Positions 14,056-20,407 of a DNA stretch of 58,612 nucleotides are shown here, piece by piece (the first letter of the stretch is position 1; every line of letters starts with the position of its first letter). The stretch comes from Alphaproteobacteria bacterium (GTDB lineage: Bacteria; Pseudomonadota; Alphaproteobacteria; UBA6615), in NCBI GenBank assembly GCA_003230015.1, contig QIGO01000199.1:1-58612 (forward strand). The letters run 5' to 3'. Made by a program: the position numbers and the translations under genes. Under the pieces are notes generated by a model, which had not been told where the DNA came from, did not search any database, and saw only the letters and a program-made list of their open reading frames with translations.

Positions 14056-14982
14056 TTAGGCCTGATCAATTAAGGCAACCGGATCCGGGCCGGGACGTGT
14101 GGCGATATACCGAACTACGCGGCGACCGATTAAATCCACCGCACAAACTTCATCACCCAGGGTACTACATAACGCCCAGCCGGTCTCGTGGTCAAAGGCG
14201 ATGGATACCGGCTTGTCCGGCAGCGGTACAGCAAATATCTGGCGGCCTTGATCGACGTCGACCACCGCCAGGGCGCGGGCGTGATATAGTGCCACCAGCA
14301 GACGACCCCGGTGGCCCCAACAGAGGCGCACCGGCCCCGGCTGGGTGGCAATCCTATTGATCATGGCGCCGGCCGCGACGTCGATAACGGTTATTTCAGA
14401 AGACTCTCGGCAGGCCACGTAGAGAGTTCGCTGGGCGGCATCGAGAACCGAGCCTTCGGGACGCGCGCCGGTGGGGATTATGCGTGGTTTGGAGTCCGGT
14501 TCGCCGGGATCGAGAATAGAAACGTCGTCGCTTTTCATGTTACTGCAGAATGCCATCTTGCCGTCACCGGTCACGGTGACAATGTGCGAGCCGGCGCCGC
14601 CCGTGGGCAGACTGCACTCGAAAACCTGGGAAAATGGGTCGGTGGCGATCAATAGTCGATCAGAGGCCTCGCTTAAAACATATAGCCGGTCATCATGGTC
14701 GAGGGCGATGCCGTGAGGCCGGCGCCAGGGGCCGCAGTCGATATAACCAACAACCTGGCGCCGCTGCAAATCAACGATGCTGACGCGGGCGCCCCCAGGC
14801 CCTTCGTCCTCGGCCAAGGCAACACCGAAATGAGACTGCAAGGCATAGCGGCGGTCGCGGGAAAGGACAAATTCATGGGGATAGGGATCAAGGGCGATGC
14901 GTGCTGTTTCCCGCCCCGTCAGGAAATCATAGATGCCTAGTGAGTGGTCATTTTTTTGCACGACCACTAGGGACTTTTTCAT
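14056..14982 (-). CDS. Beta-propeller repeat protein (YncE/YVTN-like pattern)
   Basis: Repeating ~40-aa units with motifs of the type LYV(L/A)...I(T/S)V(I/V)D and HG(I/V). Cytoplasmic (no signal peptide seen). The family call is by pattern only. Confidence 0.55.
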   Translation of the reverse strand: MKKSLVVVQKNDHSLGIYDFLTGRETARIALDPYPHEFVLSRDRRYALQSHFGVALAEDEGPGGARVSIVDLQRRQVVGYIDCGPWRRPHGIALDHDDRLYVLSEASDRLLIATDPFSQVFECSLPTGGAGSHIVTVTGDGKMAFCSNMKSDDVSILDPGEPDSKPRIIPTGARPEGSVLDAAQRTLYVACRESSEITVIDVAAGAMINRIATQPGPVRLCWGHRGRLLVALYHARALAVVDVDQGRQIFAVPLPDKPVSIAFDHETGWALCSTLGDEVCAVDLIGRRVVRYIATRPGPDPVALIDQA

Positions 14983-15238: not shown

Positions 15239-16843
15239 CTATCGGGATAGCTGCTCCTGGGTGGGCGTATCAATCTGGTCCTCGAGCGATTGAACAGATT
15301 TGATATTGAGTGCATCTGTGGCCGCGCCATCCCGCGCCACTGTCGCGGCGTCGTTGAACTCCTTCTCGCACTTGGCGGCAAGCTTGGGATAAGTTGCCTT
15401 ACAATTCAAAACCAACCCCCTTGCCTCTAGGTCGTTGCCGAGGAGTTTCTGATAACGAATTCGTGCCGGCAAGAGGTGTGGCGGATTTCCAACTGCGACC
15501 GCAGCTGAATCCAGCAACTTACCGGCTTCAACTATGCGTCCTTGGGCGAGTTCGTCGCCGATAAGTTCGAGGTAAACCTTCAATGCCGGTTCCTCACTCC
15601 GCGTCGCGATTGTCAGGTTTTGTAGATATTGCTCGCGTAGCCCCTGATCCTCGCGGATTTTCGAGAAGGCCCACCTTGGATAGGCGTCCGTCTCCGTCGG
15701 CCACGAAACCGCCACTTTTATGCGCGCGACCGCCTCGTCCAAATCGCCCCCTTGTTGCGCGTCCAAGGCCTCACGCACGGCGCGATAGTTATTCAGCATC
15801 GTCGCCATCGCGCCGTCCGGCTGTTTCATCCAAGGCAAGTCTCTCGTGACAGGCCGCTCGACAAACCTATGTTCCCGCGAAATATAGTCCCGGAGCCGAG
15901 TCTCGCGGACTTCGGGATCATAATACCCGCTACCAAACCGCTCAAACAATGCACCCTTGACGCTTCCTACCGCCTTTCTCGCGGTATTCACCGTGGCCTC
16001 TACAACCCCCGGGGCGTCTCCCTCGTTTAGCCCCGACTTAACCTGGTCGGCGGCCTGCGCTATTTCCTTTTCCCGCTTGTCGCTGTTTGCTTCGCGGCTA
16101 CGCGTTTGCCTTGCTTGGGCGAATCGCAGGGTATCGAATACCGAATCAAGGTTGTATCCGGCCGCCACCATAATATCCACACCCAAACGGTCTGCGTCAT
16201 CTTCTTGGCCTTTGGTGAATAGATTTGGTGCGATGATGTTTTCGGTTAACTCCGAGGCACCCAACAAGTAGTTTGTCGTCGTTGAATTGCTGAACTCGCT
16301 TTTCGATACCAAACTTCGAAAATTATCGAACAAATTCGACGCCTGGGTGGCGCGCTGGGTGATGTTCTCATATATATCTGTCTCTTGATGTTGATATAAA
16401 ATATGCGCCAATTCGTGTGCCAACATTGCCGCCAGCTGGTCTTCATTCTCGACTTCTTCCGCCAACAGCATACCGGCGCTGACGAGTACTAAACCCGAGC
16501 CGGTCACTACAACGCCGGGACTCGGGTTTGCGGTCAGGATGGCGCGCACGGATGCGTTCGGCACGGGCCCGGCGGCAACCAGCCGTGCCATAACTTCATT
16601 GAGATAACTATTGATTTCTCGCGCTGGAGCAATGCCAAATCCCTCCGACCGCACCGATGCCAGACCAACTATTTTTTCTTGATCGGATAACTGCGTAAAA
16701 AATCCTGATGGCCGCTCGTATGCATCGAAATATCGGCCTTCTATGTCCTTCTCAAGAAACTGAATTGGGGCCGCACAGGCGGCAACCACCAACGGAACAA
16801 GTATAACGACGCGAGACGCGTAGCGCTTTATAATATTTAGCAT
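15239..16843 (-). CDS. M48-family zinc metalloprotease lipoprotein with helical-repeat C-terminal half
   Basis: Lipobox LVVAAC. Zinc motif HELAHILYQH, with a downstream EDDADRLGVDIMVAAGY block typical of M48. The ATG overlaps the stop of the upstream 135-aa ORF (ATGCTAA). Confidence 0.8.
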   Translation of the reverse strand: MLNIIKRYASRVVILVPLVVAACAAPIQFLEKDIEGRYFDAYERPSGFFTQLSDQEKIVGLASVRSEGFGIAPAREINSYLNEVMARLVAAGPVPNASVRAILTANPSPGVVVTGSGLVLVSAGMLLAEEVENEDQLAAMLAHELAHILYQHQETDIYENITQRATQASNLFDNFRSLVSKSEFSNSTTTNYLLGASELTENIIAPNLFTKGQEDDADRLGVDIMVAAGYNLDSVFDTLRFAQARQTRSREANSDKREKEIAQAADQVKSGLNEGDAPGVVEATVNTARKAVGSVKGALFERFGSGYYDPEVRETRLRDYISREHRFVERPVTRDLPWMKQPDGAMATMLNNYRAVREALDAQQGGDLDEAVARIKVAVSWPTETDAYPRWAFSKIREDQGLREQYLQNLTIATRSEEPALKVYLELIGDELAQGRIVEAGKLLDSAAVAVGNPPHLLPARIRYQKLLGNDLEARGLVLNCKATYPKLAAKCEKEFNDAATVARDGAATDALNIKSVQSLEDQIDTPTQEQLSR

Positions 16844-17244
16844 GACTCACCATATCCGCGCGTGGCTAGCAGACTACCACCGGTAACTTCTGTGTCGCAT
16901 ATTATGGACAAGATGTCGGGCAAGGGTTTGTCCGTCTTGACGAATGTTGGCATAACCCAGCCAACATACTTCTGGTCACCAAGCCTATTTGTCACGACAA
17001 CCAGTAGCATGTTGTTTCTAGCGACACCCTTTATTGGGATAGGTAATATGACGTCCTCTTCGCTCAATGGCTGAGACTTACCGCTGATTACCGGCTCCTG
17101 GAAAAGATCGAGTGGCGGATTCGTAATTTCTGTGATCTTAAATAGTGTTGCTAGGCCCTCGGCCTCCTCTATGCTTTGACCGCTGGCCGGCGTAGAGACG
17201 TATACTAAGGCAATTAATAGGGTGGCAGCGATTTTATTCATCAT
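16837..17244 (-). CDS. Secreted 135-aa protein of unknown function
   Basis: Signal peptide MMNKIAATLLIALVYVSTPASGQ. Overlaps the CHASE2 gene by 11 nt and the M48 gene by 7 nt. Low GC. No family recognised. Confidence 0.6.
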   Translation of the reverse strand: MMNKIAATLLIALVYVSTPASGQSIEEAEGLATLFKITEITNPPLDLFQEPVISGKSQPLSEEDVILPIPIKGVARNNMLLVVVTNRLGDQKYVGWVMPTFVKTDKPLPDILSIICDTEVTGGSLLATRGYGESC

Positions 17245-18655
17245 GTTTCCTGTGCCTCTTGTCGCCCTCGAAAAGGGCGCCGTCCAATCTCGGTACGTAT
17301 TTTCTGAACATCAATGCCAGAAAGCTCTCCACCGCATTGTTGCGGGCTAGGATACCGATTGTAAGAGCTAATCCAAGCAGTCCTAGCCAGTTGGCCGGGC
17401 TGAGGTCTGCCCAATAGAAGAGCGCTAGTGACACTGCTATAGTGATCGTAAGATTGAGACCTGCAAACATCAACCACCACGCTGTGTCGCCCTGACGGCC
17501 TTTCTTCCTACTTTTACGATTAGATTTTTTTCGAGCTCGGTTTTTAATCCATCTGGAGAATGAAAGAGTAATCACTACAATCACTAAGGAGCCTATTATC
17601 TGCAAGTTGGTTCGACCCACTGGTCCTATTTGTGATTTCTTGTAATTGCCTTTGTAGGTTACGAGGTTATCATAAGCCATAGCATGCTGATAGACTCCGG
17701 GAAGAAAACCATGCGTTGGCACTACGGCCGAATCTCCCGTGCCTGAGAGGCTGGTTCCCAAGAAAATTACTTTGTCCGAAACCAAGTTCGTCAGATCATC
17801 GTCGGGGTTAAAAAGTAATACGCTAACTGGAACCGTCGCGGTGTAGGGACAGGTTTGGATAAGTTTCTCTATGCCGATCAGTCCTTTGAAGATGCGAGAG
17901 AGCGAGATACCCTGGATCCGTTTACAACCTCCCTTCATCCATCTGTCATTGAGTTCCTGGAATTGGTTTGCCCAAACGATGTCCATCGGAACATTAGGTG
18001 GGTCATCATTTGCCCTGCTCCTGCTGTGGGAGGTGGGCTCGGGCGGTAGGTTTCGGTAAAGCCAAAATGCGGCTGTTTCGAGCCCGTCCAAATCGGACTT
18101 TGTTGGATAGGTGCGGGCAGACCCGTCCGGTGCCCTTGTAGAGACATCGACCAGTATCGGTTGTGCCTCATCTACCGGCGCCGCAAGATCACTGCGGATC
18201 CCGGCAGGTAAGGTTGGCGCGCGCGCGAAAAGAAGGGGAATACCAGAACTGGCGTACCTCGATATTTCGCCGCGGAGATCGGGAATACCCGGGCTGGAAC
18301 GTTCGTCCGCGAAGGTGATATCTAACATTACTGCTTTTGGCTTGAGTTGTCGGAGTTTGGCCAGAATAAGGGCATAAAGGGATGCATCAATCGGCCAGGT
18401 AACACCGGCCGCCGATAGGAATCGGTCGTCCAACAAAAGCACCGTTGAAGGTTGGCCAAAGGGATCGGCGGCGTTGCCCGGATAGGTGGGCCCGATCACA
18501 GTCCGATAGAGTATGTCTTGCGAGGCGACTTCGGTAATTCGGTTGATTCCGAACGGATCGATCACTACCAGGACGATACCTATAACCAGGTAAAACAGGT
18601 GGTGGTAATGCCACTTTAGTGACGGAGCGGAAGTGCCGCCCGTAGCTTTCCCCAT
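17234..18655 (-). CDS. CHASE2 domain membrane protein with no output domain
   Basis: TM1 (HHLFYLVIGIVLVVI) precedes a periplasmic domain with CHASE2 hallmarks: TVLLLDDRFL...WPIDASLYALILAKLRQLKPKAVMLDITFADE, and KVIFLGTSLSGTGDSAVVPTHGFLPGVYQHAMAYDNL. Three C-terminal TM helices follow, then the stop about 40 aa after the last one. Confidence 0.75.
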   Translation of the reverse strand: MGKATGGTSAPSLKWHYHHLFYLVIGIVLVVIDPFGINRITEVASQDILYRTVIGPTYPGNAADPFGQPSTVLLLDDRFLSAAGVTWPIDASLYALILAKLRQLKPKAVMLDITFADERSSPGIPDLRGEISRYASSGIPLLFARAPTLPAGIRSDLAAPVDEAQPILVDVSTRAPDGSARTYPTKSDLDGLETAAFWLYRNLPPEPTSHSRSRANDDPPNVPMDIVWANQFQELNDRWMKGGCKRIQGISLSRIFKGLIGIEKLIQTCPYTATVPVSVLLFNPDDDLTNLVSDKVIFLGTSLSGTGDSAVVPTHGFLPGVYQHAMAYDNLVTYKGNYKKSQIGPVGRTNLQIIGSLVIVVITLSFSRWIKNRARKKSNRKSRKKGRQGDTAWWLMFAGLNLTITIAVSLALFYWADLSPANWLGLLGLALTIGILARNNAVESFLALMFRKYVPRLDGALFEGDKRHRKHDE

Positions 18656-18714
18656 CTTGCCCCAACCTCGCCGACAATCGTCCTATGCGCTCAATAGTAG
18701 CTAGTGAGAACTAA

Positions 18715-18744
18715 AGGTTAACGGCAGACGAATAGCGATGTCAA
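18715..18744 (-). promoter_or_regulatory. Candidate sigma70-type promoter for the CHASE2 operon
   Basis: On the minus strand, TTGACA (18744-18739), an 18-nt spacer, then TAACCT (18720-18715). This is about 60 nt upstream of ATG 18655, which has a GAGG RBS. Confidence 0.3.
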
Positions 18745-19032
18745 ATGAAGGCGGGGAGCATGTTGTTCGAGCGGATCAGCAAAAATGAACTATCGCTGGC
18801 GGCCAGGCTAACGGTGTGCACGTGTCACACAATGAGACCCGAAAGATAGGGGCCGTAAATGAGCAAGTGGGCGTTTCGCGACAGCTGTGGGCAGCTTGGT
18901 GTATGTAGCAGCCAGAACCCGCCTATTTAAGCGCCAAGGCCTTGGCGCGGCGGTTATTGCAAGATCGCTCATCAAGAAGGGGGCGCTGACCAAGCGAAGG
19001 TGTGTTGAGCGACCCGGAGACACTTTGAAATT

Positions 19033-19109
19033 TGGTAGCGGAGGAGGGACTTGAACCCCCGACACGCGGATTATGATTCCGCTGCTCTAACCAGCTGAGC
19101 TACTCCGCC
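19033..19109 (-). tRNA. tRNA with CAU anticodon (elongator Met, or Ile2 if lysidine-modified)
   Basis: 77-nt cloverleaf folded by hand: GGCGGAG-TA-GCTC-AGCTGGTTA-GAGC-A-GCGGA-ATCATAA-TCCGC-GTGTC-GGGGG-TTCAAGT-CCCTC-CTCCGCT-A-CCA. The anticodon CAT is at 19073-19075 (complement). It lacks the initiator features (no three G-C pairs at the base of the anticodon stem). Confidence 0.9.
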
Positions 19110-19666: not shown

Positions 19667-20407
19667 CTATCGGCGGGTGATCCGGCGGCTGCCGGCGTCA
19701 ACGCGCAAATCGAGTGGCGCGCCTTGCCAATTGGCTGAGAGGGTGTAGATGCGACCGTCCTGTCGGACATCGCCTATCTGGGTATAGCCGAGTGCCGCAA
19801 GAGCGCGGCGGATGTCTTGGATCGAGGCTTCGTGGGCGGCGCCGGCAAAAACGATGCGGCTGGGGAAACCCTCGGCCGGCCGGGTGTCGGCGGCAGACCG
19901 GTCGGTGATGGTGCCGTTGGATGCGTCGTAGCGGAGGTCGAAAGTCTGGCCTTTCCAGCTTGCCGTGGTTGTAAAGACGGCACCGGAACGCTGGAGATTG
20001 GATATGGCCGAAAAACCTAGGCCTTGGAGACCTGAGACGACTTGTGGGACCGTTATGTTATCGGGGTCGCCGACAAGGGACAGGCTCGATGGCAGGCTAT
20101 CGCCGCTCGCGGGCCGCGGATCGACGATTTGGCTGATCGTCCGGGTGCGGGCATTGACTTTCAAATCGACCGTCTTGCCCTCCCATAGCGCGGATAATTC
20201 GAATATGCGGCCGTCGCGGGAAATGGTGCCGAGGTCGGTAAATCCACTGGCGCGAAGCTGCTGGCGTACCTGATTGACGGTTACGTTGTGGCCGTCATCG
20301 AAAAGGTTGATGGTTGACGGCACTGGGGCGCCAAATGAAGCCGCCGGGGCACCAATCACAACTGCGGTCATGGCGAAAGCCGCTAGCGTGAATTTTGAGT
20401 GTGCCAT
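19667..20407 (-). CDS. Secreted protein made of three tandem PepSY-like repeats
   Basis: Signal peptide MAHSKFTLAAFAMTAVVIGAPAASFGA. Three ~70-aa repeats each end in a pattern like DGRI(F/Y)(E/T)LSA.W.G...DL(K/R)V(N/D)A..R.I. The PepSY call is by pattern only. Confidence 0.6.
   Translation of the reverse strand: MAHSKFTLAAFAMTAVVIGAPAASFGAPVPSTINLFDDGHNVTVNQVRQQLRASGFTDLGTISRDGRIFELSALWEGKTVDLKVNARTRTISQIVDPRPASGDSLPSSLSLVGDPDNITVPQVVSGLQGLGFSAISNLQRSGAVFTTTASWKGQTFDLRYDASNGTITDRSAADTRPAEGFPSRIVFAGAAHEASIQDIRRALAALGYTQIGDVRQDGRIYTLSANWQGAPLDLRVDAGSRRITRR

Follow-up and report, generated by a model that had tools for sequence, protein, structure and literature searches.

Organization of the three-gene locus

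Analysis of contig QIGO01000199.1, a 58,612-nucleotide (nt) stretch of an alphaproteobacterial genome assembly (GCA_003230015.1) that we refer to in its entirety as the window, revealed three minus-strand open reading frames (ORFs) that run in the same direction and encode an inner-membrane CHASE2 protein of 473 amino acids (aa) (gene 1, 17234 to 18655), a secreted protein of 135 aa (gene 2, 16837 to 17244) and a predicted M48-family periplasmic lipoprotein of 534 aa (gene 3, 15239 to 16843). As described below, homologs of all three genes adjoin one another across bacterial classes and, as judged from their sequences, this trio forms a self-contained module of three proteins that is widespread and is situated on the periplasmic side of the inner membrane.

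The stop codon of gene 1 and the start codon of gene 2 overlap by 11 nt (ATGATGAATAA, 17234 to 17244, minus strand), the 3′ end of gene 1 reading ...CAT GAT GAA TAA and containing the ATGATG at which gene 2 begins. This overlap shrinks to 8 nt if the second ATG is the start, and the database copy of the protein (P0004) is 134 aa long. At the second junction, the gene 2 stop and the gene 3 start overlap by 7 nt (ATGCTAA, 16837 to 16843, minus strand), with the 3′ end of gene 2 (...TCA TGC TAA) containing the ATG of gene 3. Direct reading of the sequence thus bears out the 11-nt and 7-nt overlaps that had been described in an initial annotation of the window. In the wider family, the first junction overlaps in 45 of 78 loci, in 34 of them by 4 nt, and the second in 67 of 78, as counted with a heuristic that chose start codons by an overlap-favoring rule. 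With all three genes on one strand, stop and start codons that overlap and an arrangement that is kept in relatives, the trio is predicted to form a translationally coupled operon.

Gene 1 matches the Pfam CHASE2 family (PF05226) over residues 27 to 337 with an E-value of 1.2e-14 and a score of 55 bits, against a cut-off of 26.3. Hydropathy analysis placed transmembrane (TM) segments at residues 17 to 41, 346 to 371, 392 to 415 and 418 to 436, and an AlphaFold2 model calculated with 147 homologs (predicted local distance difference test score [pLDDT] of 89.1, predicted template modeling score of 0.89) contains the same helices and an alpha/beta ectodomain. The predicted topology consists of a cytoplasmic N terminus, TM1, the periplasmic CHASE2 domain, TM2, a basic cytoplasmic loop, TM3, a short periplasmic loop, TM4 and a cytoplasmic tail of ~35 aa. 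Hydropathy and the model therefore agree in placing the CHASE2 domain extracytoplasmically, between an N-terminal TM helix and a three-TM block, which is the layout of CHASE2 kinases (PMC5192318). Within this domain (approximately residues 42 to 345; 17621 to 18532, minus strand), alignments A1 and A4 show family-wide conservation of W87-P88, D112, R119, the C244/C269 pair and a HAMAxDNL motif (H324 to L331). The C-terminal three-helix membrane bundle (residues 346 to 436; 17348 to 17620, minus strand), delimited by alignment, the AlphaFold2 model and hydropathy, includes a conserved SPxNW motif (W423) in the short periplasmic loop that joins TM3 to TM4. The basic loop between TM2 and TM3 (KNRARKKSNRKSRKKGRQ, residues 371 to 388; 17492 to 17545, minus strand) lies in a segment, residues 367 to 388, in which 12 of 22 residues are Lys or Arg, and its sequence is variable across the family in alignment A1.

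Beyond TM4, the AlphaFold2 model contains ~35 residues that form two short amphipathic helices only, and thus gene 1 has no output domain; likewise, Pfam and NCBIfam detect no domain in this region. Specifically, the TM block is followed by none of the kinase, cyclase, GGDEF/EAL or Ser/Thr kinase domains by which multidomain receptors are recognized. An NCBIfam match of the TM block to isoprenylcysteine methyltransferase (E = 0.17) was treated as noise. No solved structural relative of the CHASE2 domain was found, either by profile search or by a Foldseek search of the AlphaFold2 model against the PDB, in which the best E-value was 0.14 against a threshold of 1e-3, and thus the fold gave no hint of function.

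The product of gene 2 has no match in Pfam or NCBIfam. It carries a predicted signal peptide, with cleavage probably after ASG22, and in an alignment of 39 family members (A2) this is followed by a beta-rich core of ~70 residues and a tail with two cysteines that bracket a TRGxGExC motif. In the window protein the tail reads C116...TRGYGESC135, and C116, G130 and C135 are conserved in at least 90% of the members; at least two cysteines lie within the last 45 residues in 36 of the 39. For the beta-rich domain there are weak hints of an SH3-like fold: Pfam SH3_4 was matched by 2 of the 39 proteins (best E-value 1.8e-4) and GW by 4, and the top PDB matches of the family profile were spectrin SH3 domains, at E-values of 0.18 to 1.1 that are below significance. 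Neither FecR (PF04773) nor LysM was among the 20 Pfam families matched by the 39 proteins at E ≤ 1.

Gene 3 matches Pfam Peptidase_M48 over residues 79 to 237 (E = 1e-10; 42.2 bits against a cut-off of 20.3) and has a VAAC lipobox with Cys23. Hydropathy revealed no hydrophobic windows flanking the protease domain; 19-residue windows occur only in the N-terminal signal/lipobox region and at residues 109 to 129. A close point of comparison is BepA (YfgC) of Escherichia coli, a periplasmic M48 metalloprotease that has a C-terminal tetratricopeptide repeat (TPR) domain and keeps watch over the BAM complex and LptD. The zinc-binding and catalytic motif of gene 3, HELAH (residues 143 to 147; 16403 to 16417, minus strand), aligns with HEISH of BepA, and in a direct alignment QEDDADRLG, of which QEDDAD occupies residues 213 to 218, pairs with QNEQEADRIG. 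Within the EDDAD segment (E214 to D218; 16190 to 16204, minus strand), E214, the third zinc ligand, corresponds to BepA E201 and D218 to BepA D205. The protein thus shows the hallmarks of the M48 family, namely a Pfam score above threshold, the HExxH motif and, further along the sequence, a Glu that supplies the third zinc ligand. When the family profile was searched against the PDB, Geobacter 3c37 was matched at 1.1e-28 and E. coli BepA at 1.6e-24; some of these alignments extend through the BepA TPR domain, and profile positions 366 to 484 match TPR/PPR repeats. A TPR-like helical-repeat region accordingly spans approximately residues 340 to 500 (15344 to 15826, minus strand), as delimited by profile matches to TPR/PPR proteins and to BepA up to residue 402. 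Residues H143, E144, H147, E214, A217, D218, R313, C481 and C492 do not vary among 33 diverse members. Every element of the domain layout given in the initial annotation (one TM helix, a periplasmic CHASE2 domain, three TM helices, a basic loop and no output, together with a lipobox-bearing M48 protein) therefore holds, and the scores against the hidden Markov models (HMMs) of CHASE2 and M48 support both family assignments.

In BepA, latency is maintained by His-246, which binds the zinc as a fourth ligand in a "histidine switch" (bioRxiv 10.1101/2020.07.07.192476), and Arg-252 and Asp-205 hold this plug in place (PMC13655028). In gene 3 the corresponding plug motif is YYDPEVR (residues 307 to 313; 15905 to 15925, minus strand), defined by the columns of alignment A3 and matched to BepA by H-x5-R spacing only. 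By this spacing, the position of His-246 is occupied by His in 29 of 33 family members, and R313, at the position of BepA R252, is invariant; the window protein has Tyr307 at the plug position, and Tyr also occurs there in loci L006, L055 and L070. From the H-x5-R spacing, the invariant Arg and the invariant Asp four residues after the zinc-binding Glu, we infer that the M48 proteins of the trio are latent, as BepA is, and would be activated by a partner or cue. All sampled M48 partners start with a signal peptide or a lipobox, the latter in 35 of 79. The three proteins of the trio, in whole or in their main domains, are predicted to lie outside the cytoplasm.

Conservation of the trio across bacterial classes

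A word-index search recovered 2, 0 and 1 non-self matches for the three proteins and a single-protein genome scan recovered none; the family was opened by an exhaustive HMMER search and an alignment-based scan. The HMMER search yielded 1324 cluster representatives of the CHASE2 family at E ≤ 1e-3, of which 680 remained at a cut-off of 1e-10. The best 150 of these are 332 to 700 aa long and mostly leave no space for an output domain. Thus, the output-less form is the rule in this branch of CHASE2 proteins and the window gene is not a truncation, a point that the initial annotation had left to be checked.

In the alignment-based scan, which covered one genome per GTDB species, 458 relatives were found and the best 80 loci were kept. 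In 78 of these 80 loci, the CHASE2 gene is followed on its own strand by a gene for a homolog of the window M48 protein, and the two loci without it (L032 and L067) stop at a contig edge; throughout, the two genes are separated by an ORF of ~115 to 140 aa with a signal peptide. A second scan, for which a remote member of the family (P0003) served for the ranking, gave 75 records, with 33 new species, and 70 of the 75 contain all three genes in order. The additions include Methylomirabilota/Rokubacteria, Binatia, Dechloromonas, Cupriavidus, Azoarcus and Herminiimonas. After deduplication the two scans comprise 113 species loci, of which 108 have enough downstream DNA to be informative, and an M48 gene is adjacent in 107 of these 108, which encode the small protein too and nearly always show the same gene order. 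The loci span Alpha-, Beta- and Gammaproteobacteria, Methylomirabilota and others, and their flanking genes differ between lineages. Thus, the co-occurrence across lineages of a CHASE2 gene with an M48 gene and a gene for a secreted protein of ~120 aa, on which the initial annotation had staked its proposal, was observed. Three soil loci from metagenome-assembled genomes (MAGs), binned as Nitrosotalea (archaeal; L169), Verrucomicrobiia (L173) and Dormiibacterota (L175), also carry the trio; their identity to the query is 42 to 44%, as in the Methylomirabilota loci, and they are likely mis-binned.

The arrangement is retained in divergent members. In metagenome contigs L001 and L003, whose proteins are ~35% identical, it is preserved: in L001 the CHASE2 gene overlaps the gene that comes after it, whose secreted product shows the shared motifs ITDPPLDLF, LPIPI and GWVLPTFVETD, and L003 contains the 3′ end of the CHASE2 gene, the small secreted gene and the M48 gene. 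The order is small gene, M48 gene, CHASE2 gene in a Rhodoferax species (L063, 4770 to 8494), with all three adjacent on one strand. Locus L238 (4657 to 7628) encodes a short, divergently transcribed M48 lipoprotein that has no TPR domain and a small protein that has no terminal Cys. The sole informative locus without an adjacent M48 gene is L227 (1604 to 7000). A family HMM seeded from four gene 2-like sequences picked up the ORF flanked by the CHASE2 and M48 genes in 82 of 83 loci, and thus the small proteins constitute one family.

These data bear on another explanation of the locus, which is that gene 3 is a housekeeping BepA, LoiP or HtpX that happens to have unrelated neighbors, or that gene 1 is the remnant of a truncated kinase or cyclase sensor. 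The classical placement of CHASE2 in multidomain sensors is in keeping with a remnant, and the BepA equivalog model (NF052400) is the best NCBIfam match of the protease. That match, however, scores 33.5 bits against a cut-off of 570, and therefore gene 3 is not a BepA ortholog; HtpX was likewise rejected, at 13.2 bits against 422 and 11.9 against 245. Synteny in 107 of 108 loci across classes, the full-length and conserved character of the output-less form among the 150 closest representatives and the existence of a protein in which CHASE2 and the small protein are joined (P0118, see below) also count against this explanation. Since homologs of all three genes are adjacent across bacterial classes, their arrangement is not due to chance. 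Indeed, the synteny and family-length data rule out chance adjacency and a truncated sensor, and we assign the housekeeping or remnant explanation a negligible probability. That the trio is a real functional module is, in our judgment, close to certain.

The three proteins also co-diverge. Their distance matrices are correlated with r = 0.96 to 0.98 (Mantel p ≤ 0.001), as expected for a jointly inherited unit, with shared species history contributing too. Tight co-divergence would also fit peptide or protein signaling, in which the small protein is a pro-ligand matured by the M48 protease and its C-terminal disulfide loop, or the trimmed protein, is the ligand of CHASE2 in an autocrine, quorum or kin signaling circuit. 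The C-terminal motif C-x(15-20)-TRGxGExC, present in 36 of the 39 aligned members, would suit such a ligand, and CHASE2 cyclases of Sinorhizobium meliloti answer to a proteinaceous signal that acts through an outer-membrane protein (PMC13001267). However, no outer-membrane exporter is linked to the trio in the loci examined, most of the receptors have no output with which to report a signal, and the motif is absent in a Kiloniellales-like clade (L003 to L005) and in L238, in which the trio is nonetheless kept. We consider this explanation improbable.

Fusions and variants of the CHASE2 protein

A subset of trios encodes CHASE2 proteins with additional domains, and in a minority of relatives such a domain is cytoplasmic, which the initial annotation had not foreseen. 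In Defluviicoccus MAGs, a TIR_2 domain (E-values of ~1e-21 to 1e-24) precedes TM1 in the trios of L007 (6281 to 8314), L009 (6362 to 8305) and L012 (6431 to 8335), in each of which the small and M48 genes follow, and the same domain is found in representatives P0012 and P0027, which the two genes likewise follow and in which it matches PADLOC TIR models such as ThsB, SAVED-TIR and PDC-S66. In a Thiogranum MAG (L055, 2780 to 4924), a RiboL-PSP-type HEPN domain (8.5e-11) with an intact RNRIAH motif (Rx4H) lies after TM4, and again the small and M48 genes follow. By topology, the termini that bear the TIR and HEPN domains are both cytoplasmic. The membrane part varies as well. P0112 has an N-terminal UPF0114 membrane domain, and in P0003 and P0071 the ectodomain is followed not by three hydrophobic segments but by at least six. 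The P0003/P0071 clade is largely from Methylomirabilota/Rokubacteria MAGs and its CHASE2 proteins are ~590 to 650 aa long; in loci L165 to L181 the small gene and the M48 gene lie downstream wherever the contig permits. Finally, in P0118 (638 aa) the CHASE2 protein is joined via an extra hydrophobic segment to a small-protein domain (residues 526 to 637, E = 7.6e-10). Either a natural fusion or a merged gene call would account for P0118.

Across these variants the periplasmic trio stays constant and the membrane or cytoplasmic end changes. This pattern argues for a CHASE2 transducer with an inward-facing output, and for physical proximity of CHASE2 and the small protein in their action. Likewise, because the TIR and HEPN domains sit on cytoplasmic termini, information in those variants must flow from the periplasm inwards, and therefore the protease and the small protein fit the role of input or regulators better than that of output. 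The initial annotation had proposed a sensor-protease module in which the protease and its small companion are the output of CHASE2. The module itself is upheld by the synteny, HMM and length checks; the assignment of the protease and companion as output is not supported, in view of the TIR and HEPN fusions, and the protease is probably not the output of the sensor.

That earlier proposal can be cast as a module confined to the periplasm, with CHASE2 as anchor or sensor, control of the BepA-like protease as the sole output and the small protein as adaptor or substrate, acting in envelope quality control or processing in the manner of NlpI-Prc, LbcA-CtpA or LapD-LapG. The absence of a cytoplasmic domain from most family members speaks in its favor, as do the BepA architecture and plug residues of the protease, the housekeeping and envelope genes, rather than defense genes, that neighbor the trio and the stable context in which Rhizomicrobium keeps it. 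It would, however, leave the cytoplasmic TIR and HEPN fusions senseless, as nothing would pass inwards. Moreover, the three-helix bundle and the SPxNW loop, which are common to canonical CHASE2 sensors, are conserved even though one anchor helix would suffice, and the membrane part is swapped between clades in an effector-like manner. We regard a purely periplasmic role, the main alternative to the reading given below, as possible but somewhat unlikely.

A candidate envelope-sensing receptor module

The reading that we favor, with a confidence just short of even as regards direction and mechanism, is that the trio is a proteolysis-linked transmembrane receptor module with its output on the membrane or cytoplasmic side; more generally, it is probably an unrecognized envelope-sensing system. 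In this mechanism, a latent protease and the small protein would act on or with the CHASE2 ectodomain. An envelope cue would release the plug of the protease, which would then most likely cleave or remove the small protein, perhaps at its disulfide-bounded TRGxGExC tail. The conformation or oligomeric state of the CHASE2 receptor would shift, and the shift would be relayed via the TM bundle to the cytoplasmic side. In the TIR and HEPN variants the result would be destruction of NAD+ or RNA, i.e., growth arrest or suicide, and in the output-less majority, which includes the window protein, the membrane bundle and short tails would be the sole output, acting on the membrane or on an unlinked partner. 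The module may serve either in defense against phages or competitors or in a response to envelope stress.

Several observations weigh against this receptor reading. The TIR and HEPN domains occur in only ~5% of sampled relatives and may be secondary co-options. The distance correlations may reflect species phylogeny alone. Tyr307 of the window protease occupies the BepA plug-His position, and its regulation may differ. The fold hints for the small protein are below significance, and its single-sequence AlphaFold2 model has a pLDDT of 36. The support as a whole is co-inheritance and domain identity, from which interaction, cleavage and phenotype are inferred. Evidence from genomic context points the same way: among 134 flanking genes of 40 diverse loci there were few, scattered PADLOC matches and no defense-island signal, the CHASE2 family is absent from the phage collection searched, and its sole match in the plasmid collection is a 2.1-Mb Photobacterium replicon, which also carries the pair.

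Comparison with characterized systems shows what the trio shares with each and where it departs. It resembles BepA in the M48 and TPR layout of its protease, in extracytoplasmic location and in a set of residues at matching positions: HExxH, the Glu that acts as third zinc ligand, the Asp and Arg that hold the plug and, in most members, the His of the plug itself, with the Arg and His placed by motif spacing only. It differs in that the window protease aligns only weakly with BepA (E ~1e-4 over the protease core), has a lipobox, an insertion of ~70 aa that separates the core from the plug motif, two invariant C-terminal cysteines and Tyr in place of the plug His, and in that a CHASE2 protein and a small secreted protein are always encoded alongside the protease. 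In the trio loci examined, bam and lpt genes showed no genomic link to the module. With the CHASE2 kinases and cyclases the trio receptor shares the order of one TM helix, CHASE2 and three TM helices, conserved CHASE2 motifs and a secreted protein encoded adjacently; CHASE2 kinases are co-encoded with LysM or FecR secreted proteins (PMC5192318). Together with the protein-responsive cyclases of S. meliloti (PMC13001267), they set a precedent for CHASE2 receptors that operate with secreted partners encoded nearby or detect protein signals. In contrast, the trio receptor has no kinase, cyclase or GGDEF domain, its partner is neither a FecR nor a LysM protein and a protease gene is the obligatory third member.

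By analogy, the trio may also be likened to CpxP-CpxA-DegP, RseA-DegS and LapD-LapG, in which a small periplasmic modulator or a protease is coupled to an inner-membrane receptor and proteolysis is the switch; these, however, are unrelated families, none with CHASE2 or M48. CHASE2 is one of the variable C-terminal sensor domains of the EACC2-caspase proteins (Kaur et al. 2021, PMC8195603), in which it likewise forms the extracellular sensing end with a death or immunity effector at the other end. There, the caspase is cytoplasmic and fused, whereas the M48 protein of the trio is separate and periplasmic, and, unlike EACC2 and other conflict systems, most trios have no recognizable effector, and an NTPase, TRADD-N or EACC component is absent. 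The Caulobacter gene CCNA_00635, annotated as a "CHASE2 membrane receptor," lies in an operon with hypothetical, TPR and hemopexin-binding-like genes (PMC11724286). As compared by annotation, it too is a CHASE2 protein without output that is co-expressed with envelope proteins, including a TPR protein, but no M48 protease is annotated there. In the open-access papers and preprints that make up the full-text literature searched, no description of the trio was found under CHASE2 combined with M48, metalloprotease, TIR or HEPN. An operon in which a CHASE2 receptor and its secreted partner lack an enzyme output and are joined by an obligatory BepA-like protease is therefore probably undescribed.

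A more specific version of the receptor reading holds that the trio is a periplasm-surveying suicide or immunity system that would operate by a logic analogous to that of Toll and Spaetzle. Envelope damage caused by phage entry or lysis factors or by competitor toxins would unleash the latent protease, the small disulfide-bonded protein would be processed, the CHASE2 receptor would be switched and a swappable effector (TIR NADase, HEPN RNase, polytopic membrane domain or bare TM bundle) would kill or arrest the cell. Such a conflict role is favored by effectors of the TIR and HEPN type, by a membrane end that can be swapped, by a patchy distribution and by a dip in GC content near a tRNA-Met gene in the window. 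Specifically, GC content is 45 to 53% over 16000 to 18700 and 60 to 68% in the flanks, and the low-GC segment is bounded upstream by a tRNA-Met(CAT) at 19033 to 19109, identified with ARAGORN, which lies 377 nt upstream of the trio and, with the intervening noncoding region, spans 18656 to 19109. This composition and the tRNA suggest horizontal acquisition of the trio. No att-like repeat and no integrase were found in the window, no synteny shared with 80 other alphaproteobacterial mnmA loci was available to date an insertion, the upstream noncoding region contains no consensus promoter, and no sigma-70-type promoter or terminator exceeded shuffled controls. A search of the three window proteins against PADLOC-DB v2 gave no credible match; a PADLOC match to Cas13c (E = 0.012) was treated as noise. 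Against a conflict role stand the lack of PADLOC, att-repeat, integrase and phage-collection matches and the stable genomic context of the trio in Rhizomicrobium species, and the flanking genes of the 40 loci are, apart from the few PADLOC matches, mostly housekeeping genes, with porins, transporters and metabolic enzymes. The full suicide or immunity reading is, in our view, unlikely.

Two further genes were noted near the trio in the window. Directly downstream, at 14056 to 14982 on the minus strand, lies a gene for a 308-aa YncE-like beta-propeller protein that lacks an evident signal peptide, and next to it comes a sugar-type ABC transporter operon; no YncE-like gene adjoins any of the 80 alphaproteobacterial mnmA loci searched. 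At 19667 to 20407 (minus strand), between mnmA and a YCII-family gene, is a gene for a 246-aa secreted protein with three repeats of ~80 aa, only the last of which matches PepSY_2.

CHASE2 is a common sensor domain of the extracytoplasmic space for which Pfam and the literature consulted define no ligand, and the trio provides this domain with genetically fixed candidate partners, the small secreted protein and the protease. What CHASE2 senses, and by what means, thereby becomes testable in culturable bacteria, for example members of the Pseudomonas fluorescens group, Alteromonas, Achromobacter, Cupriavidus and Dechloromonas. The plug release of BepA-type M48 proteases could likewise be studied in the trio, a second setting that is defined by an operon. 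If what the TIR and HEPN versions do holds for the family as a whole, the trio would represent an envelope-triggered cell-death or defense system that lies outside current catalogues.

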